64,000 bases of DNA from Candidatus Iainarchaeum sp. (GCA_043817715.1 JBDRGO010000007.1:15499-79498); one strand, 5' to 3'; shown: positions 3,916 through 59,813, counted from the stretch's first letter. A program made the numbers and translations. Notes: a model not told the origin generated them from the letters alone.

Positions 3916-3948
3916 TAATTTATTGCATTAATTAAATTTAAATCCTAA

Positions 3949-4842: not shown

Positions 4843-4948
4843 GCAAGTATAAGAATTAAAGAAAATATTTAAATAAAAGAAGCTTTAAACCAAAAGAAAA
4901 CATAAATTATATTAATCTTAATAAGTTATTTATACCATAAGCAATTAA

Positions 4949-30231: not shown

Positions 30232-30235
30232 TAAA

Positions 30236-30657: not shown

Positions 30658-30927
30658 TTGGTGATTTTTTTGGAAGCTGAAGTTGTTGTAAGAAAATGGG
30701 GCAATTCTCTTGGGTTGACTTTGCCTAAAAATCTTGTTGAAACCCAGAAAATAAGGGAAAATGACCGCATATCCATTCAGGTGGAGAAAAATAAGCTGTT
30801 AAGAGTAGGTGACATTTTCGGGCTTGCGAAAGGCTGGAAATTTGACACTCAAAAATTCAAAGACCAGGCAAGGAGGGAGGAACTTGAACGGGAAAGAAAA
30901 ATTTCTGGATTCTTACGCAATCATTGA
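30658..30927 (+). CDS. AbrB/MazE-family antitoxin, second copy
   Basis: 89 aa; RKWGNSLGLTLPKN; paralog of 29995-30231. Confidence 0.7.
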   Translation: MVIFLEAEVVVRKWGNSLGLTLPKNLVETQKIRENDRISIQVEKNKLLRVGDIFGLAKGWKFDTQKFKDQARREELERERKISGFLRNH

Positions 30928-31255
30928 AATAATCAAGGAAAACCAGAATTACAAACCATTTAAGGAAGCAGTTGCAGTAACAGGCAAAGCCAACTTGATT
31001 GAAGTCGCGTACAGTCTGCTTCAGGATTTCCAAAAAGAAACCGCATTAATTATATTGGGTTCCCTGAAAATCAAAACCCTTGAAATAGAGGACAACCAGA
31101 TAACAAAAATCGCTGTTTTCAAAAAAGAACACGCCAAAAAAAAATTCTCTTACATTGACTGCATAGGTTATATCCTGGCAAAAGAAAACGGAATAGCTTT
31201 CGTCACAGGCGACAAGGAATTTGAAGGAATGCCTAATGTGGAATTCGTGAAATGA
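30884..31255 (+). CDS. vapC: PIN-domain toxin (VapC-like), second copy
   Basis: Paralog of 30236-30598; the last 45 nt are identical. No in-frame ATG at the homologous position. Proposed TTG start at 30884 sits 5 nt after a GGAGGGAGG RBS and overlaps the antitoxin. Confidence 0.6.
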   Translation: MNGKEKFLDSYAIIEIIKENQNYKPFKEAVAVTGKANLIEVAYSLLQDFQKETALIILGSLKIKTLEIEDNQITKIAVFKKEHAKKKFSYIDCIGYILAKENGIAFVTGDKEFEGMPNVEFVK

Positions 31256-36171: not shown

Positions 36172-36414
36172 ATGCCTAATATTACTTTATCAGCAACTGA
36201 TGAAATGAAGGAAAGAATGGGTCGGCATCCTGAAGTGCGTTGGTCTAATGCAGTTCGCATAATTATTGAAAAGAAATTAAATGATTTTGAAAAGGCCGAA
36301 CGTTTAGCTAATAAAATCAATCTTTCAGAGAAAGATGTTGAATTTATTTCAGATAAAGTTGAGAAGGACATGGCTAAACATGCAAAGGAGCTTTTGAATG
36401 AGGGTTACAGTTGA
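36172..36414 (+). CDS. Ribbon-helix-helix (CopG-like) putative antitoxin
   Basis: 80 aa; N-terminal ITLSATDEMKERMGRHPEVRWSNAVRIII beta-strand-helix pattern of RHH; 17-nt overlap with downstream PIN gene. Confidence 0.55.
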   Translation: MPNITLSATDEMKERMGRHPEVRWSNAVRIIIEKKLNDFEKAERLANKINLSEKDVEFISDKVEKDMAKHAKELLNEGYS

Positions 36415-36808
36415 TGCAAATATTCTTTTTTCTGCTTTGATTAAAAAAGGACAAACAAGAAAAGTTTGGTTTAATCCGGAAATTGAATTATGTGCTCCAG
36501 AATTTCTTTTAAAAGAATTCTTAAAATACAGGGAATATCTTCAGAAAAAAGCCTCTGGAACTCCTAAAGAATTCCAGGATATTTCAGAAACTCTTTTTTC
36601 ACAGGTTTTTTTTATTCCCGATTCAGAACTAAAACCATTTTTGCCTGCCGCCGCTTTTCTTTCAAATGATGCAAAAGACTGGCTTTATCTGGCTTGTGCT
36701 TTAAAAGAAGACACAATTATTTGGAGCAATGACAAAGAATTCAAGAAACAGAAAAGAATTAAAATAAAATCGACTAAGGAAATGATTGAAGAAACAGGGA
36801 TGCTGTGA
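36398..36808 (+). CDS. PIN-family putative toxin (TIGR00305-like)
   Basis: MRVTVDANILFSALIKKGQTRKVW N-terminus matches the TIGR00305 PIN toxin signature (vvlDtNvlisall). Confidence 0.6.
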   Translation: MRVTVDANILFSALIKKGQTRKVWFNPEIELCAPEFLLKEFLKYREYLQKKASGTPKEFQDISETLFSQVFFIPDSELKPFLPAAAFLSNDAKDWLYLACALKEDTIIWSNDKEFKKQKRIKIKSTKEMIEETGML

Positions 36809-43080: not shown

Positions 43081-46000
43081 CTAATTAGGATAAATTATTG
43101 GTCTTTTTTTAAAGTATTCAGTAATAGCAGTTTGCAACTCTCTTTCAGTTAACTGAATTGGCACATATTTGGTTCGCATAGAAGCCAAAATCAACTCAGC
43201 AAACTCTTTCATAATTTTTTCGTCCTGTATAAAAAGACCTTTACTATAAGCTTTTTTTACAAATTCTGAAGAAAAAGAAGAAACCCTTACATTCCCATAA
43301 ACCCAAAATGAAATTATTTCAGTCATTAATGTATCTGCATCAATCATTTTTCCGTTTATTTCAACAATTTTGCCTTCACTCATTAAAGGCGGCATAAACT
43401 TTGATGGATTAGCTTGGTATAAATCTAGCTTTGTGAAAGAATAAGTAAAATAATCCTTTTCATAACCTGTTTGAAATTTTTTAAGATATTTAATTAAACT
43501 TCTGTTTTTTGAAAACAAATTAATTAATTCAGCCCTTTCAGAAGTGCTTAAAGCAAACCAACGAATATGGCTTAATTCATGTGCTGAAATATTAATGCTA
43601 TTTGACACTAAATCTTTTCCAGATCTAAACAAAGATAGCTTATTCCAAGAAAAAGCTGAATCCAAAGAAATTGCAATGCTATCAAAACGACCTCCTTTAA
43701 TGCTTTGGAAAGTAAAACCGCCAATAGAAGGTTTAGATCTGCAAACATAAAAATAAATCTTGCCTGCAAAAGGATCATTTAACTCTGAAGTCAAAACAGG
43801 CACTAATCCTTCACTACTTAGTCCTCTGAAAACATTTTGTTTGCCACTCCTAGCCATACTCTGTTTCCAAAAAGAACCCAGTCTTTGCAGTTGATCAGGA
43901 AGAATTGCCGGCAAAGTTCTACGTAAACTCAAAGAGCCAGGAAATTTCAAATACAATTTCTTTGAACCAAACACAACCCCTTCTTCTTTCAGGATTTGAA
44001 TGCTTTCTGACAAAAATAAAGTTTCAACTTCATCAATTGAACAGGCTTCTAAAGTACTTCCTTTACAAACCACTCCCTTTGTTTCATTAATTACTGCTTT
44101 CTGGAATTGCAGTTCTTTAATCAGGATTGCTGCTTCTTCTGGTGATTCTTTTGAAACAAATTCAATCAAATCCTCCAATGAATCAAGTGTTTTACTTATT
44201 TTTGAAAGTTGTTTTGGAGTAACTGAATTCAAATTAATCAAAAAAGCGTCATCTAATTCATTAAATGAATAAATCAAATATTTTTCAGAACCGGCAACCA
44301 CTGCATCTTTTTCAACTCCTCCGACAACAATTTTTTTTGCTGTAGATTCAGCAAAATCAGTTAAAATTTCTTTTGGTACACGAGAATAAGTTTTGCTTAA
44401 ATTCCTTAAAGCAGATATTTCATACCTGAACCAGTTTGTTAAAAGATCTTTTCTTGCTTCAGACAAAGCAACCCTAAAATTAAAAACTGAAGAAGGAGTA
44501 ATTTTTGTATAAATAACTGTGGCAGTATTAGGAAAACGCTTGAATAACACTGCCTTAAATGCATTTTTTTTATCAATTGAAAGCTTAATTAATCTTCCAG
44601 TTCCCCTTAAACTAAATTCAATAAAAGGATGTTTTTCAAGAAATCTTCCAATATTTGAAAGAGCTCTTACTGAAGCTTGCGCGTATTTGCCTGAAACAAA
44701 TTCAGCTAACCTGGTTCCCAAAGAAGTTTTAATAGCACTTTTTCCGACAACTCCTACAAGAGAAAACACTCCTCTAAAAGCAAATTCTCCAATAAACCAA
44801 TACCTTACATCAAAAAATGCTTCCCATCTATGAGAACTTAATTCAACAAATTCAAGAACATGAAGCTCTGATTTAACCTTAAGAGATAAACTTGAAACTT
44901 CAGGTAAAATAATTTCATTTTCTTCATTAAATAATTCAATTTTTTTCTCTAACTCTAAAAGCTTTGCTTTTGCAACCGGGTAAACCGATTCAGAAATATA
45001 ATCCTTGGCTTCAGCGAAATCCAATTCAATTAATTCCAATTCATTTGGAGCTCGATTATGTTCATTAATTATTTCCTGAATAGAATTAAATTTCTTTAAA
45101 GTAGAATTATCAGCAGTTTTATTATTTTGAACAATAGAAGAACTTTGCAAAAAATACCTTGCTGAACCAATATAACCTTTTTCTTCAATATCTTCTTCAG
45201 TTATATCTCCTTGATTCAACAAATTTTCTAAATCATCATCCAATAAATGAACCAATATATTAAATTGCCTTTGCTGTTCATGAATAATTTCTTCTCTATT
45301 CAAAATTTCAGTTACTTCTTCCTGGTTTTCCTCTTCACGAATAATCCATTTAAGCCCATAATAGCCATTATAAAAAAGCTTTGCAAAACTAGTTCTGTCA
45401 TCCAACTGCTCATCCAATTCACCTAAAGCTCCTTTAAATAATTCATTTTCTGTTTGAATTTCTTTTTTCGCAACCTCTAACAAAATCTGATTCAAATGCA
45501 TCCTCTTATTAATTTCATTGAATTGATTAATTTCTTCTTCAGAATCAAATAAATTTGAAATTAAAAAAAGTTTTTCATTAAAAGCATACTCTGCCTCAAT
45601 AAAAGAATCAATATTCTTCCAAGAATATCGGTTCTCTAAATAATCATATCTTGTTTTCAAAAAATTGTATTTCAATTCAAATAAATCATTCATTTCACCT
45701 TCTTCACCAAAAATATTTTCCAAATCCATGAATTCACTTAAATGCATTTCCTTTAATTTCTCTGATTCCAATAATTCTTCTTCCTGAAATCTCTCGGCAA
45801 TCTTTTTATTTTCCTCTAATTTTTTCGGCAAAGTTTCCCTTGGAGAAACAAACGCCAAAGAAATTAATCCACTTGCTTCAAACAAATCAATATGCTTAAG
45901 CCTTGAATCAAAAACCAAATCAAACTTATTTAAAAAATCAAGAACAACAAATTCATCTAATTCATTTAATTCAGTAATCAAATCCAAAGTTCTTTTCTTT

Positions 46001-47034
46001 TCCCTGTGCAATTCAGAGTATACCATGTTTGCTTCACAAGAATCAAAATAAAACGAATCAAGAAAATGAATTCTATTAAAAGAAGGCATTAAATTCTTAG
46101 AACGCAATTCACCAAAATTAGAATTAAAATAATTCAAATACTGCCTGCAATTCCCTTTTGAATTAATCTGAATTTCATCGCTTAAAAGCAGCCAAACATA
46201 AGAATCAACACCAGAATTATGCTCAATAAAAGCATTTTTGTTCTCCAAAGATTTTTCAAGCAAATCCAAATACTTTTCATTCAAATCCTCTAATCTATCC
46301 AACCTGCAGTAAAGCAATGCATTGCTGAATTCCTTTTCAGTTAAGTCCTCTCTTCCATAACTTAACTCAATTTCTTTTAAACAAAAATCATTATGAATTA
46401 CAACCTCAATTCCGTCAGAAATCAAATCATCAATCATTTTCCCCTCTTCATTAATCAACCGAATATCAGCCAAACGCAGGTTAAGGGAATACTCTTCATT
46501 CAATAATTCATCAGAATAATCAGAAATATCAACACTAAAAGTAATTGTCGGCTGAACAAAAGAACTATTTGGATTAAATTCAGGATTATTAGGGTCATTA
46601 AAACCACCACTAAAATCCTCAACACTAAAAGAAACAAAATTCTTTCCAACACCATCCAAAACAAGTCGTTCATGAATTGAATAAGAAGGCAACCACTTAC
46701 TCAAAGGCAAAGTGAAAATAACTTCATCTTCAACGCTTTCATTTGAAACAAATAAATCAATCCTTTCAGGCAAATCAGGATACAAATTAATTGAAGCAAA
46801 ATCAGATTCAGTAATAGGGTCATCTTCAGCCAACCCAACTAAATCAAAAACCCCTCCAACAATGCCTTCAATAAATTCAGCTCCTTCCTTTAAAGGCAAA
46901 CCAAAAGGATCCTCAGGAGCTGCAAAAACAGAAATAAACAAAAAACAAAAGAAAAAAAACAAAAAAAACTTTTTATACATGAAAAATAAAAGAAAAAGGA
47001 AAATAAATACTTTACTAAAAGCATTTATTTCCAA
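43081..47034 (-). CDS. Giant (1317 aa) secreted or membrane-associated hypothetical protein
   Basis: N-terminal, strongly hydrophobic F/L-rich signal or anchor (FIFLFLLFFMYKKFFLFFFFCFLFISVFAAP); remainder acidic and helical with no recognised domain. Confidence 0.5.
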   Translation of the reverse strand: MEINAFSKVFIFLFLLFFMYKKFFLFFFFCFLFISVFAAPEDPFGLPLKEGAEFIEGIVGGVFDLVGLAEDDPITESDFASINLYPDLPERIDLFVSNESVEDEVIFTLPLSKWLPSYSIHERLVLDGVGKNFVSFSVEDFSGGFNDPNNPEFNPNSSFVQPTITFSVDISDYSDELLNEEYSLNLRLADIRLINEEGKMIDDLISDGIEVVIHNDFCLKEIELSYGREDLTEKEFSNALLYCRLDRLEDLNEKYLDLLEKSLENKNAFIEHNSGVDSYVWLLLSDEIQINSKGNCRQYLNYFNSNFGELRSKNLMPSFNRIHFLDSFYFDSCEANMVYSELHREKKRTLDLITELNELDEFVVLDFLNKFDLVFDSRLKHIDLFEASGLISLAFVSPRETLPKKLEENKKIAERFQEEELLESEKLKEMHLSEFMDLENIFGEEGEMNDLFELKYNFLKTRYDYLENRYSWKNIDSFIEAEYAFNEKLFLISNLFDSEEEINQFNEINKRMHLNQILLEVAKKEIQTENELFKGALGELDEQLDDRTSFAKLFYNGYYGLKWIIREEENQEEVTEILNREEIIHEQQRQFNILVHLLDDDLENLLNQGDITEEDIEEKGYIGSARYFLQSSSIVQNNKTADNSTLKKFNSIQEIINEHNRAPNELELIELDFAEAKDYISESVYPVAKAKLLELEKKIELFNEENEIILPEVSSLSLKVKSELHVLEFVELSSHRWEAFFDVRYWFIGEFAFRGVFSLVGVVGKSAIKTSLGTRLAEFVSGKYAQASVRALSNIGRFLEKHPFIEFSLRGTGRLIKLSIDKKNAFKAVLFKRFPNTATVIYTKITPSSVFNFRVALSEARKDLLTNWFRYEISALRNLSKTYSRVPKEILTDFAESTAKKIVVGGVEKDAVVAGSEKYLIYSFNELDDAFLINLNSVTPKQLSKISKTLDSLEDLIEFVSKESPEEAAILIKELQFQKAVINETKGVVCKGSTLEACSIDEVETLFLSESIQILKEEGVVFGSKKLYLKFPGSLSLRRTLPAILPDQLQRLGSFWKQSMARSGKQNVFRGLSSEGLVPVLTSELNDPFAGKIYFYVCRSKPSIGGFTFQSIKGGRFDSIAISLDSAFSWNKLSLFRSGKDLVSNSINISAHELSHIRWFALSTSERAELINLFSKNRSLIKYLKKFQTGYEKDYFTYSFTKLDLYQANPSKFMPPLMSEGKIVEINGKMIDADTLMTEIISFWVYGNVRVSSFSSEFVKKAYSKGLFIQDEKIMKEFAELILASMRTKYVPIQLTERELQTAITEYFKKRPIIYPN

Positions 47035-47039
47035 TGAAA

Positions 47040-48269
47040 TTACTTTCCGTCTAAAGGTACTTCTTCTCCAGTTGATTCTGGTTCTTTTAATTTACCTGCA
47101 TCTGCTTTTAATGCATCAGCTTTATCGGTTTTTTCCCAGGTAAAATCAGGATCATTCCTTCCAAAGTGGCCATATGCAGCGGTTTTTTGATAAATTGGTC
47201 TCAATAAATCCAAATGCTTAACTATTTCAGCTGGTTTTAAACCAAAGTGTTTTCTTACAAGTTCCTCAATTTTTTCTTCTGCAACTCTGTTTGTTCCAAA
47301 AGAATGAACCATTACACTTACTGGATCAGCAACACCAATTGCATAAGCTAATTGCACTTCACATTTATCCGCTAAACCCGCAGCAACAACATTCTTCGCA
47401 ATATATCTTGCCATATAAGTTGCACTTCTATCAACCTTTGAAGGGTCTTTTCCTGAAAAGCATCCTCCTCCATGAGAACCATGCCCTCCATAAGTATCAA
47501 CAATTATTTTCCTTCCAGTTAAACCTGAATCAGCTACTGGCCCGCCAACAACAAATCTTCCAGTTGGATTAACAAAGAATTTTGTTTTATCATCAATCCA
47601 ATCACCACAAACTGGTTTAATTACTTTTTCAATTACATCTTTTCGTAATTCCTCTAAAGAAATTTTATCTGAATGATGCGCTGAAACAACAATTGCATCT
47701 GCTCTAACTGGTTTTCCTCCTTGATACTCAATTGTTACCTGTGATTTTCCATCAGGACGCAAATAATCCAATTCTTTTTTCTTTCGAACATCAGTTAATT
47801 TCATTGTTAATTTATGCGCTAACATAATTGGCAAAGGCATTAATTCAGGAGTTTCATTTGAAGCATAACCAAACATCATTCCCTGATCTCCTGCCCCCTG
47901 TTCTTCTCCTGCTTTTCCTTCAGCACCTAAAGCATTAACTCCTTGAGCAATATCAGGGCTTTGTTCTGACAAAGCAACAATAACACCGCAGCCATCAGCA
48001 TCAAAACCAAATTCAGGGTCATCATAACCAATTCCACGAATTGTTTCACGAACAACTTTCTGAATATCAATATATGTTGAAGTAGTTACTTCACCAGTAA
48101 CAAAAATAATTCCTGTTTTAGTAACACATTCAATTCCAGACCTTGCTTTAGGATCATCCTTAAGCATTGCATCTAAAAGAGCGTCACTTACTTGGTCGCA
48201 AACTTTGTCTGGGTGACCAGGGGTTACACTCTCACTAGTAAAATAATATTTTCCATTTTTTTTAACCAT
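47040..48269 (-). CDS. metK: S-adenosylmethionine synthetase (bacterial/eukaryotic MetK type)
   Basis: [28 protein letters not shown]-terminus and whole-length collinearity with MetK; extra C-terminal tail of about 30 aa. Confidence 0.9.
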
Positions 48270-48360: not shown

Positions 48361-48921
48361 ATGCTTCCAGAATTAAGTGAAATTAAAAGCAAAAGAAAAG
48401 AATTAGATTTAACTCAAAATGATTTAAGTGAATTAAGCAAAGTTTCACAATCGCTTATTGCTAAAATTGAAAACAAACAAGTAATTCCTTCTTATGATAA
48501 TGCAAAAAAATTATTTGATGTATTATTCGGAAATGAAAAAGAATTAACTGCAAAAGAATTAATGAGCAAAAAAATTGTTTCAATTGATTCAGAAAAAACT
48601 TTATTGAATGTAATTGAATTAATGGAAAAAAAATCTGTTTCTCAATTGCCTGTGATTGAGTCAGGAAAAAGCATTGGTTCAATTACTGAAAGAAATGCAT
48701 TTGATTTAATTCAAGAAAGCATTAAACCAGAAAAAATTCTTGAAAAAAAAGTTAAAACAGTAATGGATAAACCTTTTCCTGAACTTTCAATAAATTCAGG
48801 AATTGAAAGAATTTCAAATGCATTAAGAAACAGCCCAGCAGTATTAATTATAAATGAGAATAAAGTAACAGGAATAATAAGCAAAAGCGATTTAATGAAA
48901 AGGATTACTGGAAGGAAATGA
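48361..48921 (+). CDS. HTH (XRE-type) transcriptional regulator with tandem CBS domains
   Basis: N-terminal LDLTQNDLSELSKVSQSLIAKIENKQ HTH; two CBS-like segments (ELMSKKIVSID... and VMDKPFPELSIN...). Confidence 0.7.
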   Translation: MLPELSEIKSKRKELDLTQNDLSELSKVSQSLIAKIENKQVIPSYDNAKKLFDVLFGNEKELTAKELMSKKIVSIDSEKTLLNVIELMEKKSVSQLPVIESGKSIGSITERNAFDLIQESIKPEKILEKKVKTVMDKPFPELSINSGIERISNALRNSPAVLIINENKVTGIISKSDLMKRITGRK

Positions 48922-49018: not shown

Positions 49019-49615
49019 ATGGGCGGGCGGCATAAACCTGGCAACAGAAAACGGCCTGAAAAAAGCGGCAATACATACAAACTAGGCTGCAGACGAGATA
49101 GAAAAAAAAGACAAGAAAATTACAGAAACGGAAATTACACTGGCAGTATAACAGGTTTTGCCGAAAAGATTTCTCGCGTTGAGTTTGATAGAATCCAAGA
49201 GACAAGGGGAAGAATAAAAAAAAGAAGGAATTCTCTAATTCCGGCTTATATTAAAGAACCAAAGTATAACAACCTGATAGATTTGATTTCAGCCGAAAGA
49301 GAAAGGCTGAAAATTGAAATCAGGTATCTGAAAAGAAGGGGCGATGTAAAAAAGCATGTCGGACTGTTTAGCAAGGGTCCAACCCCTAATGCCTACGGAT
49401 CGGTTCTGAACAGCATGAAAACAAGAAAAAGAGAAATAAATGAAATATGTAAACCGCTTGAAGCGATTGAAAAAGAATTTACTCAACTCCAAAAACAACA
49501 AACTGCAGTAACTGAGAATAAAAAAAATGAGTGGGTAGAAAAAATAGTGTTTGCAATAAGGGAATTGGACAGCTATCTAAATAAATATTTTCCAAGCATA
49601 AAAATAGAGAGATAA
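49019..49615 (+). CDS. Hypothetical basic protein
   Basis: 198 aa, very K/R-rich. Confidence 0.3.
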   Translation: MGGRHKPGNRKRPEKSGNTYKLGCRRDRKKRQENYRNGNYTGSITGFAEKISRVEFDRIQETRGRIKKRRNSLIPAYIKEPKYNNLIDLISAERERLKIEIRYLKRRGDVKKHVGLFSKGPTPNAYGSVLNSMKTRKREINEICKPLEAIEKEFTQLQKQQTAVTENKKNEWVEKIVFAIRELDSYLNKYFPSIKIER

Positions 49616-49703: not shown

Positions 49704-52154
49704 ATGAACATGAATAATTGGTTAAAGTCAGGAATTTTTTTATTTTTATTAATTTTATTCAGCGCAGGCGTTTTTTCTGACCCTATTATTTATGCATTCA
49801 GTCCGGAAAACGGCTCTTATTATGAGGTAGGAGAATTGGTTAATTTTAAGGCATATGTTGCCGACCAAAAGTATGGTAATGGACAGGCCGCTTTTGCAAA
49901 AAACTGCGGTTATCCAAATAATCCGACAAATGAATGCTTTACCTGGTTTTCAAGCCTGGATGGCTTTTTAGGTTATGGAGTTGGCATTAACAAAGATTTA
50001 ACCGAAGGAACCCATACAATTACTTTTACTGCAACAAATCCAGATAATGAATCAACCAGCATGCAGATTCTTATTTTCGTAGGAATTAACCCCTATAATT
50101 ATCCTCCTTCAATTAATCTCCCAACAACATGGGAAATTGATGAAAGCAAGGAATTTGAAACACTTGATTTATGGCAGTATGCAAATGATGCAGATGATGA
50201 CGATGATGATTTGGATTTCTGGATTGTAAGCGAAAGCAATACCAATACAGTGAACTGCCATATTCAATCAGGCAGATATCTTAAATGCTATCCTTACAAT
50301 GAAGGATTTAGTTATGTCAAAGTAAGGGTTGAAGACCCTGAAGGATTTTATGCTGAAGACACAGTTAAAATTGTTGTCAGTGATTCATTTTCAGGAACTA
50401 ATCTGGAATTAGTGCTTCCTGCAGAATGGGAAATGGACAAAGATGATTCAATCCAGTCAATTGATTTATGGGATTACACTGATTTTGACGGAGATTATGA
50501 TGATTTAGATTATGAAATTGACAGCGAAACAAATACAGCAGTTGCTGACTGCTATATTTCAGGAAAATACCTGAAATGCAATCCAAAGAAAAAAGGAACA
50601 AGCACAGTTTATGTTGATGTATCAGGAGACGGAGAAACTGATTCAGATTACGTGAAAATAACAGTTATAGACCAGGGAACTGGTTCAGGGAATTTGGAAT
50701 TAATCCTTCCAGAAGAATGGGAAATTTATGAAAATGAGCAGACTGATTCAATTGATTTATTGGATTACACTTATTATGACGGAGACGAAGCTGACTTGGA
50801 TTATGAAATCACAAGCGAATCAGGCACCTCAATAGTGGACTGCTATATTTCAGGAACTTACCTTAAATGCAATCCAAAGAAAAAAGGAACAAGCAAAGTT
50901 TATGTAAAAGTTGATGATGGATATGAAACAGATTCAGATTATGTGAATGTAACTGTGATTGACGGCGGAACAAGCACCACAGGATGCAGTAACCTTGAAA
51001 TCAATACTTTTACAGTTTCATTAAATGAAGGGACTTATAAAATTTCTGAATTTGAACTGAAAAACAATTCAGGCAAAAAATTCTTTATTGATTCCATGGA
51101 AGCATATGATAGTTCAAGCTATTTTGATACAGCCAAATACAGCGCTCCGGATTATGTCAATGGAAACAATAAAGCCAAATTCAAAGTTAAAATTGAATCA
51201 AACGAAGTTTCAGGAAACAAAACAGGAACAGCTTATGTAAAGGTAAAAGGCCATTTTTCAGGGCAAAACTCATGCACTAAAACAGAAAGCTTTACAGTAA
51301 AAATAAATGATTTAGGCAGTTCAAATGGAAACAATGACTTTGATAATAACTTTAATTATAATTATGAATGGGACAGTTCATCAGTTGTTTTAGTAAGCCC
51401 GAAATCACTTGTATTAAATAAAGGGGAATCAGAAGGAGTTTCAATGCTTGTAAGGAATTTGACTGATTCAACCCAATGCTATGAAATAAGCTTTAATTCA
51501 GGCACAAAATACATTAAAACAGAAATTCAGGATATTGATGAATTCTGTTTGGATGAAGCAGAATACACTGAATTAAAATTAAGGGTTTTGGCTGAAACAG
51601 ATGCAGTGCCAGGATATTATTCCCCTACAATTGAGACAAAGTATCACGGAAAAACCGACAGGCAGTCAATCAGTGTTAAGGTTACAGCAGACAAGGCTCC
51701 CGCAGCAAAAGAAGAAGTTCTTTCATTAAGCGGGTTTACTTCAGAAATTGAATCATTTGAAGATGAAACAGAACTGGAATTCACTGTTGAAAACAAATCA
51801 GACGAAACAATTAATGATGTATTGATTTCAATTGAAGGCCTGCCTGAAAATGCAAGATTTGAACCAGTATTGATTTCATTCATCGGCGCAAAAAACGCAA
51901 GAACAGTTAAAGGAAAACTTTTACTGAAAGATGTTGCAGCAGGGGAATACAAAACAGTAATTAAAGTCCAGTCAGGAAATGAAATGACTGCAAAAGAAAT
52001 GGCATTAAAAGTGACAGAAAAAGCACAAGAAGAAAATGGCTTTATTTCAGGATTAATTGGATTAGGCTCAACAGCAGGAATAATCATTGGATTCATTATT
52101 CTGCTGGTTTTGGCAGTGGCAATAATTTATTATGCAATAAAACCACATAACTAG
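49704..52154 (+). CDS. Secreted surface protein with three ~100-aa acidic repeats and a C-terminal GL-x-GL-S + TM anchor
   Basis: Signal peptide; repeats LEL(V/I)LP(A/E)EWE...DLWDYTD...DLDYEI.SE...CYISG.YLKCNPKKKGTS.VYV; C-terminus GFISGLIGLGSTAGIIIGFIILLVLAVAIIYYAIKPHN. Confidence 0.55.
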   Translation: MNMNNWLKSGIFLFLLILFSAGVFSDPIIYAFSPENGSYYEVGELVNFKAYVADQKYGNGQAAFAKNCGYPNNPTNECFTWFSSLDGFLGYGVGINKDLTEGTHTITFTATNPDNESTSMQILIFVGINPYNYPPSINLPTTWEIDESKEFETLDLWQYANDADDDDDDLDFWIVSESNTNTVNCHIQSGRYLKCYPYNEGFSYVKVRVEDPEGFYAEDTVKIVVSDSFSGTNLELVLPAEWEMDKDDSIQSIDLWDYTDFDGDYDDLDYEIDSETNTAVADCYISGKYLKCNPKKKGTSTVYVDVSGDGETDSDYVKITVIDQGTGSGNLELILPEEWEIYENEQTDSIDLLDYTYYDGDEADLDYEITSESGTSIVDCYISGTYLKCNPKKKGTSKVYVKVDDGYETDSDYVNVTVIDGGTSTTGCSNLEINTFTVSLNEGTYKISEFELKNNSGKKFFIDSMEAYDSSSYFDTAKYSAPDYVNGNNKAKFKVKIESNEVSGNKTGTAYVKVKGHFSGQNSCTKTESFTVKINDLGSSNGNNDFDNNFNYNYEWDSSSVVLVSPKSLVLNKGESEGVSMLVRNLTDSTQCYEISFNSGTKYIKTEIQDIDEFCLDEAEYTELKLRVLAETDAVPGYYSPTIETKYHGKTDRQSISVKVTADKAPAAKEEVLSLSGFTSEIESFEDETELEFTVENKSDETINDVLISIEGLPENARFEPVLISFIGAKNARTVKGKLLLKDVAAGEYKTVIKVQSGNEMTAKEMALKVTEKAQEENGFISGLIGLGSTAGIIIGFIILLVLAVAIIYYAIKPHN

Positions 52155-52218
52155 GAAATTAAACAATCAAATAAATTTAAATATTCCAAAACAGTGTATA
52201 TCACTAAAGGGATGAAAA

Positions 52219-52908
52219 ATGGGCTATATTAAAGATAGAAGGTTAAGTCCGAATATAACAAAAAAACTAAGGGAAACCCATCAGGATTTTTCTAAACCAC
52301 ACCAAATAAACGGAAAATACCATTTAACACTCAGAGACAATCTCTCATTTACTCCAAGATTCGAGATAACTGATAGAACAGGAGTAAAACACATGGGAAG
52401 GGATATCGGGCATTTTACAAGAGGGCATGGAATGATTCCAGACCATTTAGTGGAGAAACTGTTTTTGCCTTCCTTAATGCATGTCGAAGAATATGAAAGA
52501 AGAATATTTAAAGGCGGATTGTTTGAGGAATACAAAAAACACCAAATAGATAAGTTTGAAAGCATTATTGGAAAAGAAGAAAAAGCAGAAATAGGCGGGC
52601 TAAAAAATCCAGCACACATTGAGGTCATTGCAAGCCCGGAAGTTGCAAGAAAAATGATTGAGGCAGGCTATGTTTTAAGCAGGACAACATACAACAGAAT
52701 AATGCCGGAAGCAAGAAGAATGACCAGAGGAAAAACACCTTCAATAAAGCAGTCACGTAAAGCATTAAAAAAACTTTTACAAATCCCAAAAAAGCCAACA
52801 AAAAAAGGAAAACCAATAAAGCGCTTAATTGAAGGAATAAAAAGAAGCCTAGGTCCAGACAGGGAAACCCCTGAACTGGTTTTACTCAAACCAGTAAGCC
52901 CTAAATAA
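52219..52908 (+). CDS. Hypothetical basic protein
   Basis: 229-aa ORF embedded in the surface-protein cluster. Confidence 0.3.
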   Translation: MGYIKDRRLSPNITKKLRETHQDFSKPHQINGKYHLTLRDNLSFTPRFEITDRTGVKHMGRDIGHFTRGHGMIPDHLVEKLFLPSLMHVEEYERRIFKGGLFEEYKKHQIDKFESIIGKEEKAEIGGLKNPAHIEVIASPEVARKMIEAGYVLSRTTYNRIMPEARRMTRGKTPSIKQSRKALKKLLQIPKKPTKKGKPIKRLIEGIKRSLGPDRETPELVLLKPVSPK

Positions 52909-53012
52909 ATGGCTGATTTACGCCAAGAAGCCTAAATTCTGCCCTCCAAGGCAAAACAATAGCTTTAAATACTTAAACGCATACTATTAATTAGTAGTAA
53001 CACTTTATTATC

Positions 53013-53888
53013 GTGAATAAGTTAACTTTGGGGGATTGGATGCATAAGAATGGATTTTTGTTTGGAATAATTTTTCTTGTTTTGTTTAGCTTAAGCATTT
53101 TTGCATTTAATGTTTCAGGAATTCCTTCTGAAATAGAGTTCAATGAAAAGCCCGAAGTGCTGAGCTTTTATGTTGAAAATAATTCAGGATATGAAAATAA
53201 TTTAAGCATTGAAATTGCTTTTCCCGGAATGATTACTGCTTTAAACGCCCCGAGAAAAATCGGTTCAGGAGAAACAGAAAAAATTGTCTTCAGGCTAAAC
53301 CCTTCGAAGAATTTAATCAGATCGGTTTATTTGGGAAAAATAAAAATCAAGCTCGGAGATTTGGAAACAGAAAGGACAATTAAATTCAGGTTCAATGAAT
53401 TCAAAGGAAAGGCAATTAAGATTTCATTTGAAAAAAATGAAATTAATTTAAATGAATCAAATGAACTGAATGTTATTTTGGAAAACCAATATTTATTGGA
53501 TTCACAGGAAATTGAATTAGTGAAAGTTGAAAATCCGCCTTTCGGATGGAAGTTCAGTTTTGAAAAAACATCATTGGATTCACTGGAACAAAAAACAGTT
53601 CCATTAACAGTCAATGCAACCGGCGCATATTCAGGAACCATTATTCTGGTTTTTGAATCAAACGGAATTCAGGAAAAAAAAGAGCTGAATGTTATTTATG
53701 AACAGAAAGGAAATAATTCAGGAATTTTCGGATTGTTTGTTTTGCCTGAATTGGGCGAAATAAGCATGGGCGATTTATTGATTGATTTTATTTTAATTTT
53801 AATTGTTGCAGTTTTATTGATTTCGTTTATTTCAAAATTAACCCAGTTTCTTTATAGTAGAGATAAAAAAAATGGAGTGAAAAAATGA
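53013..53888 (+). CDS. Secreted/membrane-anchored protein
   Basis: N-terminal signal/TM, beta-rich ectodomain, C-terminal TM; stop overlaps the next start (ATGA). Confidence 0.4.
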   Translation: MNKLTLGDWMHKNGFLFGIIFLVLFSLSIFAFNVSGIPSEIEFNEKPEVLSFYVENNSGYENNLSIEIAFPGMITALNAPRKIGSGETEKIVFRLNPSKNLIRSVYLGKIKIKLGDLETERTIKFRFNEFKGKAIKISFEKNEINLNESNELNVILENQYLLDSQEIELVKVENPPFGWKFSFEKTSLDSLEQKTVPLTVNATGAYSGTIILVFESNGIQEKKELNVIYEQKGNNSGIFGLFVLPELGEISMGDLLIDFILILIVAVLLISFISKLTQFLYSRDKKNGVKK

Positions 53889-55843
53889 ATAAACTAAAAT
53901 TAAAAATGAATAAATTAAGCTTAATTCTGGTTATTGCAGGAGTGCTTTTAATTGTTCTTTCAGCAGGAGCCAATGCAGAATGCAATGGAACATGCGATTT
54001 AGTTAATTACATTTATGATTCAGACATAATCATTTCAGCCGAAGAAACAAGTTTGGGCTTAATGCCTGAAGGCGTAATTTCAACATTAATTTCAGTTAAA
54101 AATTCAGGAAATGAAATCAAATGCATGAAATTGTTTGCCGACCCGAATTATGTTGGATTGAAGGCAGTTTTGGCTGAAACAGATATTTGCGTTGCACCGA
54201 ACCAGGCAAGAACTTTCTCGCTTACAGTTACCGCACCAAAAGAAATTCCTTCCTATCCTGTAATTCATACAGTAAAGATTTTCGCAATGCAGGAAAGCAA
54301 GGTAATTGCAGAAAAAAAAGTATTAGTTGACATTGACGGAGACAAATGCTTTTCATTAAAACAAAGCTATTATAAGCCAGTTTTTGAATTAAACGGATAT
54401 TCTAAAGAAATTCCTTTTACAATCAAAAATTTATGCGAAAAAACACTTCGCCTGGAATTAAGCGCAGACAATGAAATGTTCATGCCTGAATTTGAAGAAA
54501 ATGAAATGATTCTGAACAGAAGCGAAACAAGAAGGACAAATTTAGTTATTCATATCAACGGCACAACTCCAGCAGGGGATTATGAAGCAATGGTTTACGG
54601 AAAAAGCAAGGACAGAAAAGTGCAGAGATATGCAAATTTTTCATTAACTGAAAACTTTCATAAAAAACAATTGAAAATTGAAGTATTGGATGAATTCACT
54701 GAAATGAAAAGAGGGGAAGAAAAATTAATCCGCTTTAAGGCAACAAATTTAATGAATGAAAAGCAGAAGATTTTCTTTATGGCAAATTTAACATTAGGAT
54801 ATGAATTTTTGCAGGAAAGCCATGAATTTGAAGCAAATGAATCACAGGTGTTTTACTTAAAAGTAAAGGCAAAGGAATTCAATGAAAACAAGCAGTACAA
54901 GGGAATATTATACGCTTACAACAGAAACGGGGAACAGGACGAAGATGATTTCTTTGTTGAAATAAATGCAGAGCATGATGTAACTGCAGAATTGCTTGAA
55001 GGAAATGCAAAGGCATTGATTTGTGCAATAAATGAAAAGGCAATTGCGGAACTGCTTGTTTCAAATTACGGGGACTTCAATGAAAAAATCGAGATAAAAA
55101 TAAATAATCCTGATTATAAAACAATTGAAGTCAAAGCAGCAGAAAACAAATTCACACTGGATGAAGACGAAAGCAGAAAAGTATTCATTGCAATTGCGCC
55201 AGGAACCGAAGCAGAATTAGGCGAGCATGAATTCACAGCAACAGTTTATGCATCAGGAAAATTTATAAAAAAATTCACCATTAACTATATTGTTGTTGAA
55301 GAAGAAAACACAGAATTGGAACAAGGAGTAATCCAGATAACCGGATTTCCGACAGAAGTTTCACTGGCGCAAGGCGAAGAAAAAGAAATGGTTTTCACCA
55401 TAACCAATACATCAAAAGAAAAAATAAAAGGAATAACTGCAGCAATGAAAGGACTGGGTTATGGAACCACTGCATCAGAAGAAAAAATTTCACTTGCAGC
55501 AGGGGAAACAAAGACAGTTAAACTGAATTTAAAGGCGGAAAAAAACGCCAAAATAATTTCATTCAATGCAGTAATTGAAATCAAATCAGATGAATTCATT
55601 GATTCAAAACCGGTTAAAGTAATTGTCCTTTCAAAAAAAGAAACCAAAGAAGAAGGCAATGAAGGCGCATTGGAAACAGCAATAGCCGGATTAATCGGGT
55701 TAGGAAGCTCCCTAGGCGGAGGGCTAATGATTTTAATATTAATCATAGCAATAATACTTATTATTTCACTACTTAAAAGTGATGAAACAAAATCAAACAA
55801 CAGGTGGATTGCCTATAAAAAAAGGAGAGGAATGTATGCATAA
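53885..55843 (+). CDS. Secreted surface protein with C-terminal GL-x-GL-S + TM anchor
   Basis: Signal peptide; Ig-like beta-rich modules; C-terminus AIAGLIGLGSSLGGGLMILILIIAIILIISLLKSDETKSNNRWIAYKKRRG. Confidence 0.5.
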   Translation: MNKLKLKMNKLSLILVIAGVLLIVLSAGANAECNGTCDLVNYIYDSDIIISAEETSLGLMPEGVISTLISVKNSGNEIKCMKLFADPNYVGLKAVLAETDICVAPNQARTFSLTVTAPKEIPSYPVIHTVKIFAMQESKVIAEKKVLVDIDGDKCFSLKQSYYKPVFELNGYSKEIPFTIKNLCEKTLRLELSADNEMFMPEFEENEMILNRSETRRTNLVIHINGTTPAGDYEAMVYGKSKDRKVQRYANFSLTENFHKKQLKIEVLDEFTEMKRGEEKLIRFKATNLMNEKQKIFFMANLTLGYEFLQESHEFEANESQVFYLKVKAKEFNENKQYKGILYAYNRNGEQDEDDFFVEINAEHDVTAELLEGNAKALICAINEKAIAELLVSNYGDFNEKIEIKINNPDYKTIEVKAAENKFTLDEDESRKVFIAIAPGTEAELGEHEFTATVYASGKFIKKFTINYIVVEEENTELEQGVIQITGFPTEVSLAQGEEKEMVFTITNTSKEKIKGITAAMKGLGYGTTASEEKISLAAGETKTVKLNLKAEKNAKIISFNAVIEIKSDEFIDSKPVKVIVLSKKETKEEGNEGALETAIAGLIGLGSSLGGGLMILILIIAIILIISLLKSDETKSNNRWIAYKKRRGMYA

Positions 55844-58800
55844 AATAATTGGAATGCTTTTGGTGCTGGCTTTAATTTTTCCGGCAGCATATGCACTGGA
55901 AATAAACGGAAACTGCGATAACAGCATAACTCAATGTGAATTGGGAATAAATGACCTGGAGGTATGCAATAACAGCACCCAAAGGGATTTTTTTAATGTG
56001 ACTCTTTCAGGAGAAGCAGCAAAATGGGTTACTGTCCTGCCCTCAACACTTGAACTTGGACCAGGAGAATGCAGGCAAATACAGACATTCACTGTTTCAG
56101 CATGTTACACTGAGCCAGGAACTTATGGATACACTATAACAGTTTCTGATGGATTCAATGCATCAATTAATTGTGAATTAGAAATTATTCAAGGACATAT
56201 TGTTCCAATTAAAATAATGCCATCTTATCATGAAGCAGCTCAATGTGAAGAAAAAATTTATTCAGTTGAATTAAATAATACTTCAATAATTGATAAACAG
56301 CAAACAGAAGATGTATTTCTTTCATTGCATGGAGAACTTCCAGAAGAATGGGCTCAGTTTTCTGAAACTGAATTAAAAGTAAAAAAAGGAAGTCCTAAAA
56401 CAGTTGAATTAAAAGTTAAATCTCCTTGTAATGCTGAATTCAAAGAATATGATTTCATAGTAAGAGCAGCATTATTTAATCCAAATTTCTTTGATGAAGA
56501 TAATGCAGTATTTGAAGTAAAGCAAGCACAGAACTTAGTAATTTCTTCTGAAAGCAATGCAGCATTAATTGCATGCAAAGAAGAAAAAAGAGAATATTTT
56601 TTGAATTTCAGAAACAATGGAAAATACAATGACGAATATGAATTAAATTTAGATGGACCTGAATGGGTTCAATTAGAAAGAGACACTGTTTCAATTCAAG
56701 CAGGAACATCAAAAGACGTTAAATTGATTTTAAATAAAGCACCAAAAGAAAAAGAAATTTCATTGAAAGTAAAAGCTGTTTCAGAAAAATACAATTATGA
56801 AACAACTAAATTAATTGATGTTAAAGCAATGGATTGCTATAGTTTGAAAGCTGAATTAATTCAAGGAGCAAACACTGCTTGTGCTGAAGTACAAGAAACA
56901 TATGAATTTGAAGTAACTAATACTTCAATTGAAAAAAGAAACATTGAATTAGAAGTAAAAGGTTTAAACGGGGATCTTGAAAAAAATGCTCTTGCATTAG
57001 AAGCAGGAGAAACACAAAAAGTAACCTTCAGACCTGATTTAGAAAATTTACCTGAAGAAGGATATGCAGAAGAATCTGATATAACTTCAATTGAATTCAT
57101 TATGGATACTTCAGGTTCAATGATTGAAAAATTAGGCGGAGAAAAGAAAATAGATATAGCAAAAAGAGAATTAAGAAAATTAATTGAAGACACTGCAAGC
57201 ATTAATGCAGGATTAAGGGTTTTCGGACAGGGAATTTCAGATGACTGCGCTGAAAGCCAGTTAACTTACCCTATTGAAAAATTAAATACTGGAAAAATGA
57301 TACAAAAAATAAATTCACTTTCCCCGCAGGGAAAAACCCCTCTTGCACAGGCATTAAACGCAGGGGCAAATGACTTCACAGAAAAAGGAAACAATGCAAT
57401 AATCCTTGTAAGCGACGGAAAAGAAACATGCAATGGAAACATTGACGAAGCAATCAAAACAGCAAAAGAAAAAGGAGTACGTGTTTACACTGTGGGATTT
57501 GACATTGATGAAGCAGGACAGAAAGAACTGAAAAAAATCGCTTCTGAAACAGGCGGAAAATACTTTGATGCAGTAAATGCAGAAGAACTCGCAGGCTCAT
57601 TAAATGAAATTGCAAGAGAACTGAAAATAGTCAAATCAAAATCATCTGCAGAATCATTCACATTCAAGGCAAAAACAGAATTTGCCGAAGCAAGCAAAAA
57701 AATAAATTTAACAGTAAATGACTGCTTCAATGCAGCACTGTCAATTCCGGAACTTGCATTATGCAAAGGAATTGAAAAAAAGGAATTCTTCAAAATAGCA
57801 AACCTTGGAACAGAAAAACTTGAATTTGAAGTAAGCTCAGTTCCTGAATGGATTAAAGTGGATGAAAAATTCATTAAAACAACTGTTCTGCCTGAAGAAG
57901 AAAAAGAAATTCCTTTCACAGCACTTGCACCAATAAATGCAATTGAATCAGAATATACCATAACAGTGAACTCAGAAAACCAGAAATTAAAGGACACAAA
58001 AGAAATGGTTTACTTAAGCGACGCAAGCTGCATCGGAGTGGATTTAATCACATTAATAGAGGAAATTGATGCAAAAGTATGCGAAGGAAAAGACTACACA
58101 ATTTACATTGAAAATACAGGGCAAACAAATGCAGAAGTAACAGTTTCAAGCAATAAAAGCTGGGTATATGTAATAAATGACAAAATTACATTAACACCAG
58201 GAGAAAGAAAAGAAGTCACTTTCTTTGTAAGCCCCCCATTTGACGTAGGCCCTTACACTGAACTCGTATTCAATGCAAAAACAGACAAAGGATTTGAATC
58301 AAGCGTTTCAATCGGATTAATCAAAACAGGCCAGGACTTTGAAGAAGAAATTGATTTGCAGATAAAAGCAGATAAAAAAATAATCGAAATCACAGACCCA
58401 AAAGAAGGGGCAACAGTTGAATTCGAACTTGAAAACAATTCAAACAGAGTATTGAAAATCAATTCAATCACTTCATTGAAATATGATGCAAAATTCAACC
58501 TGGAAAAAACAAGAATCGCGGCAAAAGAAAGAACAAAAGTATCAATGCAGGTAATAATCCCTGAAGGCGAAGAAGGAACAATTGTTGTTCCATTCAAAAT
58601 TACAACAAACCAAGGAACCTATGTAAGAGACATACCTGTTGAATTCAAAATAACTGAAGCCCCACAAACAGAAGAACAGCCGATTTCAATCGGAAGCGGA
58701 TTGTTTTCACTTGTAGGATTAAGCGGAGTAATCATCGGATTAATACTGTTAATCCTTCTGGCAGTTGGTTCATACTATTATATCAAACAGAAAAAAGAAG

Positions 58801-58919
58801 AAACAAAAAAAGAGCAAGAGGAAACCAAAACAGAAGAACCAAAAGAACCTGCTGAAGCAAAGGCAAAAAAGAAAACAGCAAAAAAAGAAACAAAAAAAAC
58901 AGGCAAAAAAAAGAATTAA
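55836..58919 (+). CDS. Surface protein with von Willebrand factor A (vWA/MIDAS) domain, C-terminal TM anchor and poly-Lys tail
   Basis: Start set at MHKIIGMLLVLALIFPAAYA (signal peptide; RBS AAAGGAGAGG), overlapping the upstream stop by 8 nt. The vWA domain has the MIDAS motif DTSGSM, then LSPQGKTPLAQAL, then ILVSDGKET. C-terminus GSGLFSLVGLSGVIIGLILLILLAVGSYYYIKQKKEE... with a K-rich tail. Confidence 0.7.
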   Translation: MHKIIGMLLVLALIFPAAYALEINGNCDNSITQCELGINDLEVCNNSTQRDFFNVTLSGEAAKWVTVLPSTLELGPGECRQIQTFTVSACYTEPGTYGYTITVSDGFNASINCELEIIQGHIVPIKIMPSYHEAAQCEEKIYSVELNNTSIIDKQQTEDVFLSLHGELPEEWAQFSETELKVKKGSPKTVELKVKSPCNAEFKEYDFIVRAALFNPNFFDEDNAVFEVKQAQNLVISSESNAALIACKEEKREYFLNFRNNGKYNDEYELNLDGPEWVQLERDTVSIQAGTSKDVKLILNKAPKEKEISLKVKAVSEKYNYETTKLIDVKAMDCYSLKAELIQGANTACAEVQETYEFEVTNTSIEKRNIELEVKGLNGDLEKNALALEAGETQKVTFRPDLENLPEEGYAEESDITSIEFIMDTSGSMIEKLGGEKKIDIAKRELRKLIEDTASINAGLRVFGQGISDDCAESQLTYPIEKLNTGKMIQKINSLSPQGKTPLAQALNAGANDFTEKGNNAIILVSDGKETCNGNIDEAIKTAKEKGVRVYTVGFDIDEAGQKELKKIASETGGKYFDAVNAEELAGSLNEIARELKIVKSKSSAESFTFKAKTEFAEASKKINLTVNDCFNAALSIPELALCKGIEKKEFFKIANLGTEKLEFEVSSVPEWIKVDEKFIKTTVLPEEEKEIPFTALAPINAIESEYTITVNSENQKLKDTKEMVYLSDASCIGVDLITLIEEIDAKVCEGKDYTIYIENTGQTNAEVTVSSNKSWVYVINDKITLTPGERKEVTFFVSPPFDVGPYTELVFNAKTDKGFESSVSIGLIKTGQDFEEEIDLQIKADKKIIEITDPKEGATVEFELENNSNRVLKINSITSLKYDAKFNLEKTRIAAKERTKVSMQVIIPEGEEGTIVVPFKITTNQGTYVRDIPVEFKITEAPQTEEQPISIGSGLFSLVGLSGVIIGLILLILLAVGSYYYIKQKKEETKKEQEETKTEEPKEPAEAKAKKKTAKKETKKTGKKKN

Positions 58920-59159: not shown

Positions 59160-59813
59160 TTATTTTTTCTTCAAAAAAGAATTAAAATGCCCTGCAACCA
59201 AAGAACTGTTAATCAGCAGTGCTTTTTCCTCTTTTTCATCAAATGAATGATTCAGATAAAGCAGTACAGAATCCTTGTCAAGCAGGACAAATTTTGATTC
59301 AGAGGATTCAACAGAGGAAAAAGAAAATTTTTTTCTTGAAGCATGCTCTTTAAATGAATCAATTGATTCTTTTGAACCTACAAAAACAGGCTTTGAAGAA
59401 GAGTCAAAAATAATGGAATTGATGTTTTTCTTTCCTGCAATCAGAACCGCGGATTCATTGAAAGCATTTTCAGGATGCTCCTGCAACTGGGACTGAAGGG
59501 AAGAAACAATTGAATCCAGTTCAGAAAAATGAGTTTTCATATCATGCTCTTTCCTTGATTTAACAAAAACAAGGACTTTCTTTAAAGGAAAGGCAGAATA
59601 CTTAACCGGCTTAACCGGCTTATGCGAAATAAATCCCTTATTCTGCAAGGAAACCAATACATCATAAACCCTTGCCCTAGGAATTCCTGCTTTTTCCGAA
59701 ACAACGCCTGCAGTTGAAGTTCCTGAATTAAGCAAAGCAACATATGCCTTTGACTCATATTCATTCAAGCCCAATTGCTTGATTAAATCAATTAATTTCT
59801 TCAACCACTTCAC
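59160..59813 (-). CDS. TrmB-family transcriptional regulator
   Basis: N-terminus LGLNEYESKAYVALLNSGTSTAGVVSEKAGIPRARVYDVLVSLQNKGFI is the TrmB HTH signature. Confidence 0.7.
   Translation of the reverse strand: MKWLKKLIDLIKQLGLNEYESKAYVALLNSGTSTAGVVSEKAGIPRARVYDVLVSLQNKGFISHKPVKPVKYSAFPLKKVLVFVKSRKEHDMKTHFSELDSIVSSLQSQLQEHPENAFNESAVLIAGKKNINSIIFDSSSKPVFVGSKESIDSFKEHASRKKFSFSSVESSESKFVLLDKDSVLLYLNHSFDEKEEKALLINSSLVAGHFNSFLKKK

Follow-up and report, generated by a model that had tools for sequence, protein, structure and literature searches.

A conserved Iainarchaeota gene cluster for membrane-anchored Ig-like and vWA surface proteins that share a juxtamembrane motif

Four adjacent genes, here called A, B, C and D, in a 64,000-nucleotide stretch of DNA from Candidatus Iainarchaeum sp. 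(GCA_043817715.1, JBDRGO010000007.1:15499-79498; the window herein) encode predicted surface proteins that end in a short glycine- and leucine-rich motif, a single transmembrane (TM) helix and basic residues. The locus raises the question of whether this C-terminal motif is a signal for sorting by a dedicated enzyme, as an earlier note made from the sequence alone had proposed, or part of proteins that stay in the membrane by their own helices. We rate the cluster as one of membrane-anchored immunoglobulin-like (Ig-like) and von Willebrand factor A (vWA) surface proteins, a known kind, with a conserved motif that is unexplained. Our interpretation, in which we place moderate confidence, is that A-B-C-D may form a lineage-specific Iainarchaeota operon for a TM-anchored, multi-subunit adhesion complex, and that the motif may be a juxtamembrane element of its assembly.

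Composition and conservation of the cluster

The cluster consists of four co-directional open reading frames (ORFs) on the plus strand:

Gene A, 49704-52154, plus strand: 816 aa; signal-like N-terminus, repeated beta-rich ectodomain, C-terminal anchor
Gene B, 53013-53888, plus strand: 291 aa from GTG 53013; small, two beta-rich domains, C-terminal anchor
Gene C, 53885-55843, plus strand: 652 aa; signal-like N-terminus, Ig-like (NPCBM_assoc/CARDB-type) repeats, C-terminal anchor
Gene D, 55836-58919, plus strand: 1027 aa; signal-like helix, about four Ig-like domains, a vWA domain, about four more Ig-like domains, motif, TM helix, lysine-rich tail

B and C overlap by 4 nt (ATGA, from the C start at 53885 to the B end at 53888) and C and D by 8 nt (from the D start, ATG 55836, to the C end at 55843). 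The sequence GGAGAGG lies directly upstream of the D start, which agrees with the 1027-aa NCBI protein P0002; alternative starts are present in A (ATG 49710, giving the 814-aa form P0015) and in B (ATG 53040). When read by eye from the translations, all four N-termini showed a basic and a hydrophobic stretch along with a cleavage-like site of small residues, and all four C-termini a single hydrophobic helix followed by basic residues. Outside the vWA domain, Pfam returned generic Ig-like families only (FixG_C, NPCBM_assoc, CARDB and ASH), including a weak match of B to ASH (PapD-like Ig). The gene positions and overlaps described in the earlier note were thus confirmed, and the signal-like N-termini and beta-rich ectodomains agree with the signal peptides and the beta-rich or Ig-like ectodomains that it had assigned to the four proteins. 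A and C are distant paralogues (24% identity over 407 aa, E = 1.5e-6), and so are C and D (27% identity over 166 aa).

The largest protein, D, carries a metal-ion-dependent adhesion site (MIDAS) within its vWA domain:

D vWA domain (aa 420-585), 57093-57590, plus strand: Pfam VWA (PF00092), E = 3.9e-17, 63.5 bits against a cut-off of 23.8
D MIDAS motif DTSGSM (aa 424-429), 57105-57122, plus strand: invariant in orthologues

The intact DTSGSM motif, also remarked on beforehand, is part of a set of residues (D424, S426, G427, S428, T501 and D527) that was invariant in 11 D orthologues; we take T501 and D527 to be MIDAS residues on the basis of their position and of what is generally known of the motif. 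The nearest solved sequences to this domain were vWA domains of the BatB type (4rck, E = 6.6e-14; 3ibs, BatB; 4jdu). Structure prediction of the ectodomains, suggested in the earlier note, was carried out for D, using AlphaFold2 (AF2) with the 11 orthologues (mean predicted local distance difference test score, pLDDT, of 77). The model comprises a signal helix, about four beta-sandwich domains at residues 20-400, an alpha/beta vWA domain at 418-595, about four further beta-sandwich domains at 600-937 and, near the C-terminus, a TM helix at 966-984 followed by a disordered tail, so that the vWA domain is surrounded by about eight beta-sandwich domains. A Foldseek comparison of this model with the PDB gave generic Ig-repeat matches, namely hydin-like ASH/PapD-like repeats, alpha-2-macroglobulin MG domains and titin (query-normalised TM-scores 0.11-0.25), with no functional analogue among the matches listed.

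Full-length orthologues share 34-48% identity with D, and a scan of one genome per GTDB species gave 25 loci with a full-length D gene. Every one of these loci belongs to the Iainarchaeota or to an unclassified archaeon, and the complete 1.24-Mb genome CP010424.1 is among the sources; outside this set, matches were confined to the vWA domain and were mostly bacterial. NCBI annotates C and D as proteins of a Candidatus Diapherotrites metagenome-assembled genome, and in current taxonomy the related Candidatus Iainarchaeum genomes belong to the phylum Iainarchaeota (Diapherotrites) of the kingdom Nanobdellati, i.e. to DPANN. Orthologues of A, B and C were present in 15, 21 and 24 Iainarchaeota loci, respectively, and the order A-B-C-D, with the same stop/start overlaps, recurred in most of the 25 species loci, several of which lie on incomplete contigs; A is not adjacent to B-C-D in some lineages (loci L017 and L019). 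Genes in the fetched loci were called as longest ORFs, and some of their N-termini are over-extended. A metagenome scan with the B-family alignment yielded 13 loci, which had the same architecture wherever enough sequence was present and contained no new neighbours, and a word-index homologue search with C returned C itself as the sole match. We found no description of the cluster or of its motif in the literature searched.

One C orthologue (locus L016, 5038-9978) is 1646 aa long and has an extra N-terminal region of 866 residues that matches none of the A-D families. The possibility that it is a fusion of A and C, which would have spoken for a complex, was considered and rejected, as residues 867-1646 correspond to C and the first 866 match no A orthologue.

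The C-terminal motif and its conservation

The tripartite arrangement of motif, TM helix and basic cluster is present in all four proteins and is cleanest in A. The C-terminus of A reads ..FISGLIGLGSTAG, TM helix, KPHN; that of C ..AIAGLIGLGSSLGG, TM helix, KSDETK..KKRRGMYA; and that of D ..IGSGLFSLVGLSG, TM helix and a lysine-rich tail of 44 aa. These sequences bear out the glycine- and leucine-rich motif that the earlier note had described ahead of a single TM helix and a K/R tail in A, C and D, and B, which it had left uncounted, adds a degenerate copy (NSGIFGLF) 19 residues ahead of its TM helix. In A (SGLIGL), C (AGLIGL) and D (SGLFSL), the motif lies 5-11 residues ahead of the scored hydrophobic helix core. 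The elements are as follows:

A motif SGLIGL (aa 782-787), 52047-52064, plus strand: the identity of the motif 7-mer ranks 12th of 809 sequence windows
A TM helix (aa 793-812), 52080-52139, plus strand: followed by the 4-aa tail KPHN
B degenerate motif SGIFGL (aa 236-241), 53718-53735, plus strand: conservation not above the ectodomain level in the B family
B TM helix (aa 255-276), 53775-53840, plus strand: more conserved than any other part of the B family
C motif AGLIGL (aa 601-606), 55685-55702, plus strand: G and last L nearly invariant in the family alignment
C TM helix (aa 613-630), 55721-55774, plus strand: followed by an SLLNSNKS-type stretch in most orthologues
D motif SGLFSL (aa 954-959), 58695-58712, plus strand: identity ranks 35th of 1039 sequence windows
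D TM helix (aa 965-983), 58728-58784, plus strand: AF2 helix at 966-984
D cytoplasmic tail, 58785-58916, plus strand: lysine-rich, 44 aa in the translation

In a search anchored on the last TM helix, 77 of the 84 cluster proteins had the motif [TAS]-G-[LF]-x-x-L, starting 4-29 residues upstream of the helix. Its final position is L in 66 of these 77, and its G, although preset by the search pattern, is nearly invariant in the family alignments; the usual forms are xTGLVGLATTAG in A, VGTGLFSLA in D and FLAGLxxLGG in C. As a control, the looser pattern [STA]G[LFI]xx[LFI] was sought within 32 residues of a terminal hydrophobic segment, and it occurred in about 8% of regions (5/57 bacterial ORFs and 2/30 archaeal non-cluster ORFs). 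The archaeal control had scored 4/32, two of the four being cluster proteins that the family filter had missed. The enrichment of the motif in cluster proteins over controls has a nominal Fisher p of 1.6e-31, with orthologues entering as non-independent samples. Comparison of the motif with the ectodomain of the same family gave the following values:

Mean pairwise identity, A family: motif 0.52, ectodomain 0.25
Mean pairwise identity, D family: motif 0.71, ectodomain 0.42
Mean pairwise identity, C family: motif 0.35, ectodomain 0.28
Mean pairwise identity, B family: motif 0.25, ectodomain 0.25

In the A and D families the motif was also more conserved than the linker that follows it (0.52 versus 0.42 in A; 0.71 versus 0.27 in D) and than the last 100 residues of the ectodomain (0.22 in A, 0.32 in D). 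Loss of the similarity in orthologues had been named in advance as a result that would speak against a shared signal; we found the motif still present in orthologues of 33-48% identity and in each of the four families.

Related C-termini were also found in a metagenome-assembled genome from the Micrarchaeota (JACCLL010000026.1, locus L054), which encodes a tandem Ig-repeat protein (10-2973) and a 728-aa vWA protein (2986-5172). The vWA protein ends in LTGLFV and a TM helix and the Ig-repeat protein in ATGLFTL and a TM helix, both with basic tails, and their ectodomains are barely alignable to those of A-D. Since these relatives keep TGLF and the TM helix next to barely recognisable Ig domains, the conservation points to purifying selection and not to leftover similarity. 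The pair looks like a smaller counterpart of the cluster, here in another phylum of DPANN, on a contig that begins within the Ig-repeat gene.

The segments that follow the motif are conserved as well, in a manner that differs from family to family. The TM helix of the B family has the consensus D-x-F-L-V-I-I-A-A-I-L-L-I-A-F-I-A-R-L, with Asp fixed at its start and Arg at its end, and an identity of 0.55 versus 0.25 for the B ectodomain. In most C orthologues a conserved stretch of the type SLLNSNKS follows the helix. The D-family tail has a median length of 50 aa, one third of it K/R, with K/R at 7 of the 12 last residues and a lysine cluster at its end, and the A-family tail has a median length of 3 aa. 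The spacing between motif and helix varies, and acidic residues lie between the two in B and C. One would not expect such family-specific conservation of helices and tails in a segment destined for removal; it fits anchors that are retained.

Possible roles: adhesion complex, processing signal or envelope scaffold

Starting from the domain make-up, the conserved gene order and its stop/start overlaps, the invariance of the MIDAS in D and the occurrence of the conserved motif in four families, we infer an adhesion complex of the following kind. A-D would be Sec-exported, single-pass type I membrane proteins, each a string of ASH/PapD-like Ig beta-sandwich domains, that keep their own TM anchors and join into one cell-surface complex. 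In this complex D would present an outward-facing vWA/MIDAS domain mid-height on a long stalk of Ig domains and would bind a ligand, which may be a host cell, a surface or a polymer, in a metal-dependent manner. The motif, 4-29 residues outside the TM helix, would serve as a membrane-proximal contact that lets the four stalks pack against one another or bind a shared partner, and the near-invariant helix of B, the SLLNSNKS stretch of C and the long lysine-rich tail of D may do subunit-specific work in or under the membrane.

Known surface systems resemble the cluster in part. Integrin alpha and beta subunits are type I proteins with large ectodomains, in which the vWA-type MIDAS of one subunit binds the ligand; contacts between ectodomains, juxtamembrane segments and TM helices join the subunits, whose cytoplasmic tails are short and basic. 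The likeness would be one of functional analogy only, as A-D share no sequence relationship with integrins beyond the vWA fold, would associate as four subunits and not two, and gave no beta-propeller, PSI or EGF domain in Pfam searches or in the AF2 model of D. The pilus operons of Gram-positive bacteria (RrgA/B/C, SpaA/B/C) encode exported Ig-domain proteins with a C-terminal motif, TM helix and basic tail, and their largest subunit bears a vWA/MIDAS adhesin domain. A-D match them in the small operon, the Ig-domain proteins, the tripartite C-termini and the vWA/MIDAS domain of the largest subunit, but have no LPXTG motif (LPXTG_anchor scored 10.6 bits against a cut-off of 15.9, from the TM part only) and no adjacent sortase (class C in the pilus operons) in the 25 loci, and their host is an archaeon without peptidoglycan. 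The pilins of such operons have CnaA/CnaB folds, and no pilin structure was among the 50 Foldseek matches listed for the D model. Finally, the likeness of D to the Bat (Bacteroides aerotolerance) proteins BatA and BatB is limited to the vWA domain. D was a weak match to the NCBIfam model for BatA (31.4 bits against a cut-off of 380) and has instead about eight flanking Ig-like domains and a C-terminal anchor, and the conserved neighbours of the cluster are MetK, HTH-CBS and TrmB proteins, with no MoxR ATPase or DUF58 partner of a Bat operon among the Pfam-annotated neighbours.

A rather unlikely alternative, in our estimate, is that motif, TM helix and basic tail form a dedicated processing signal. 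A membrane enzyme encoded elsewhere, akin to archaeosortases, to rhombosortases/rhomboids or to glycosylphosphatidylinositol (GPI) transamidases, would then cleave near [TAS]-G-[LF], and the ectodomains would be released or moved to a lipid or an envelope polymer. Substrates of the archaeosortase system have a signal peptide and, at the C-terminus, a short motif, one TM helix and basic residues (PMC6098224). A-D are like the substrates of archaeosortases and exosortases (PGF-CTERM/ArtA, PEF-CTERM and PEP-CTERM) in their signal-like N-termini and tripartite C-termini, and the selective retention of the motif across four diverged families and two DPANN phyla is what such a signal would lead one to expect. 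They differ in that their motif has another sequence, sits 4-29 residues outside the helix and not at the start of it, has acidic residues between it and the helix in B and C, and was found only on four paralogous families of one operon and not on unrelated proteins.

Searches directed at a processing system gave no positive support for it. No curated sorting-domain model in NCBIfam matched full-length A-D, the models covered including those for PGF-, PEF-, PEFG-, PIP-, VPXXXP-, Loki-, PEP- and GlyGly-CTERM and for LPXTG. Isolated C-termini scored at noise level (PEFG 7.3, PEF 13.1, Loki 12.0 and LPXTG 10.6 bits against cut-offs of 16-25), from their TM part only. No archaeosortase-, exosortase- or rhomboid-like match was obtained among the tested membrane proteins of the window (Pfam, NCBIfam), and the 25 syntenic loci have no conserved multi-pass membrane protein next to the cluster; sortase systems with a single target usually have the enzyme gene adjacent. 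The other large secreted proteins of the window (starting at 21348, 22986 and 43081) have no C-terminal anchor, and nothing in the literature searched links archaeosortases to Iainarchaeota or Micrarchaeota. A 44-column profile of all four families (58 sequences) retrieved nothing at E <= 10, the cluster proteins themselves included, and is uninformative. Moreover, family-specific TM helices and a D tail of about 50 aa would be pointless in a discarded propeptide. Of the earlier comparison with PGF-CTERM and PEP-CTERM proteins, therefore, the tripartite layout and the different motif stand, whereas the step to an unrecognised archaeosortase- or exosortase-like signal was not supported: sequence analysis provided neither a model match, nor a sortase in the window or at the loci, nor, in searches of low power, an unrelated carrier, and the helices and tails are conserved within families. 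That [TAS]-G-[LF]-x-x-L, the TM helix and the basic tail constitute a new C-terminal sorting or processing signal of Iainarchaeota and some Micrarchaeota, served by a remote enzyme of an unfamiliar family, appears unlikely to us.

Several observations weigh against our interpretation of A-D as an adhesion complex with retained anchors, and some of them favour a processing signal. The C-terminus of the A family, with its motif, TM helix and only about three basic residues, has exactly the look of a classical tripartite sorting signal. In the AF2 model of D the motif lies within a low-confidence coil (residues 940-965, pLDDT 30-40), with no confident structure of its own in the monomer model, as would be expected of a site recognised by an enzyme. 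The searches for carriers outside the cluster had low power. About 450 kb of Iainarchaeota DNA contained two to three further secreted proteins with a C-terminal anchor, a small sample, and none of them had the motif; a D-weighted profile of 44 columns, searched against 1.84 billion representative proteins at E <= 1e-3, gave 11 matches, all of them members of the D or A family or fragments; this recovery of cluster members only counts against a processing signal, in a search that left even the window's own C unlisted. The high identity of the TM helices is in part a composition effect of segments rich in Leu, Ile and Val. Some D orthologues (P0011 and P0012) have no motif, so it is not strictly needed by D. 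Lastly, the argument that the four proteins would form a complex consists of operon structure and translational coupling.

A second alternative, which we consider improbable, would also have the anchors retained: A-D may be a surface-layer (S-layer) or structural scaffold of the envelope, held by TM stalks like SlaB of the Sulfolobales, with the motif as part of the stalk. TM-anchored S-layer subunits occur in archaea without archaeosortase, and Sulfolobus SlaB is an exported, beta-rich protein with a retained C-terminal TM helix in such an archaeon (PMC6098224). A-D would likewise be exported, beta-rich proteins with a retained C-terminal TM helix; their strings of Ig-like (CARDB/NPCBM_assoc-type) domains and the maintenance of the cluster across the phylum beside a housekeeping gene, metK, agree with this alternative. 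On the other side, A-D have no sequence or family match to SlaB, from which the MIDAS adhesion domain and the four paralogous subunits also set them apart, and they matched no S-layer family model in Pfam or NCBIfam. The invariant MIDAS indicates ligand binding rather than the building of a lattice, and A does not lie beside B-C-D in L017 and L019.

That the motif has no function, being a residue of paralogue duplication or a glycine- and leucine-rich extension of the TM segment, is very unlikely. In its favour, paralogy can still be detected among A, C and D, TM boundaries often have G/L-rich strings (compare the loose pattern in the controls) and the B motif is conserved no better than the B ectodomain, but the ectodomains of different families are at the edge of detection while the motif G and L are nearly invariant over about 25 species and in the Micrarchaeota, and in A and D the motif is better conserved than its flanks. 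Because the G and the last L have stayed nearly invariant between distant paralogues that otherwise diverged, this conservation counts for a functional motif. On the evidence of these alignments, the juxtamembrane motif is real and appears to be kept by selection in several otherwise diverged lineages; chance is ruled out, and mere residual paralogy seems unlikely.

Surrounding genes and the place of the cluster in Iainarchaeota biology

Three neighbours of the cluster are conserved across loci:

HTH-CBS regulator, 48361-48921, plus strand: Pfam HTH_3 and CBS; upstream neighbour of the cluster, kept in 14 loci
TrmB-family regulator, 59160-59813, minus strand: Pfam TrmB, E = 1e-21; convergent downstream neighbour, kept in 20 loci
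S-adenosylmethionine synthetase MetK, 47040-48269, minus strand: Pfam S-AdoMet_synt_N/M/C; syntenic with the cluster in 12 loci

Judging by synteny, the HTH-CBS and TrmB regulators may belong to the system. The three-domain S-adenosylmethionine synthetase is presumably of the bacterial/eukaryotic type and not of the archaeal MAT type.

The earlier note had also counted two very basic proteins as interleaved with the cluster genes, and this part of its description did not hold. The 198-aa basic ORF at 49019-49615 (plus strand) lies upstream of A, between it and the HTH-CBS regulator, and not between cluster genes. A single, weak relative was found, a 168-aa ORF that occupies the corresponding place in the closest genome (L006; 28% identity, E = 1.7e-5); elsewhere this place has other small genes or none. 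The 229-aa, very basic ORF at 52219-52908 (plus strand; 49 K+R) fills the A-B spacer in this genome only; in all the other genomes examined, that spacer measures just 70-175 nt. None of the fetched loci contains a homologue, and the ORF may have been inserted recently into the operon, or it may be spurious. Neither ORF matched a Pfam, NCBIfam or PHROGs family above noise, and both were rejected as members of the cluster, as they are not conserved across loci.

Elsewhere in the window, a 987-aa protein (18180-21143, minus strand) has a winged helix-turn-helix (HTH_45/HTH_20) at its N-terminus together with five Big_9 and four cadherin-like repeats, an unusual joining of a DNA-binding domain to repeats of extracellular type. 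Two adjacent plus-strand genes (21348-22643 and 22986-28295) encode secreted NosD/beta-helix proteins of 431 and 1769 aa with near-identical signal peptides, the larger of which terminates in two dockerin-like ADIDxxxYVNxxDF repeats and lacks a C-terminal anchor. For a 1317-aa protein whose N-terminus is hydrophobic (43081-47034, minus strand), neither Pfam nor NCBIfam gave a match. Three small PIN-domain proteins are encoded on the plus strand (30197-30598, 30809-31255 and 36398-36808); the first two are paralogues with a common C-terminal ..TGDKEF.GMPNVEFVK.

The prevailing view is that most DPANN archaea live attached to other cells. To our knowledge, the molecules by which they attach are largely unknown and no member of the Iainarchaeota has been cultured. 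If the motif were a sorting signal after all, it would be the first case of sortase-like surface anchoring in DPANN, for which the literature searched describes no archaeosortase. The shared juxtamembrane motif offers a defined experimental handle for telling a retained anchor from a new processing pathway, and the A-D cluster is usable as a lineage marker. As a phylum-wide, four-gene surface module with an invariant site for metal-dependent adhesion, it is a concrete candidate for attachment in the Iainarchaeota.

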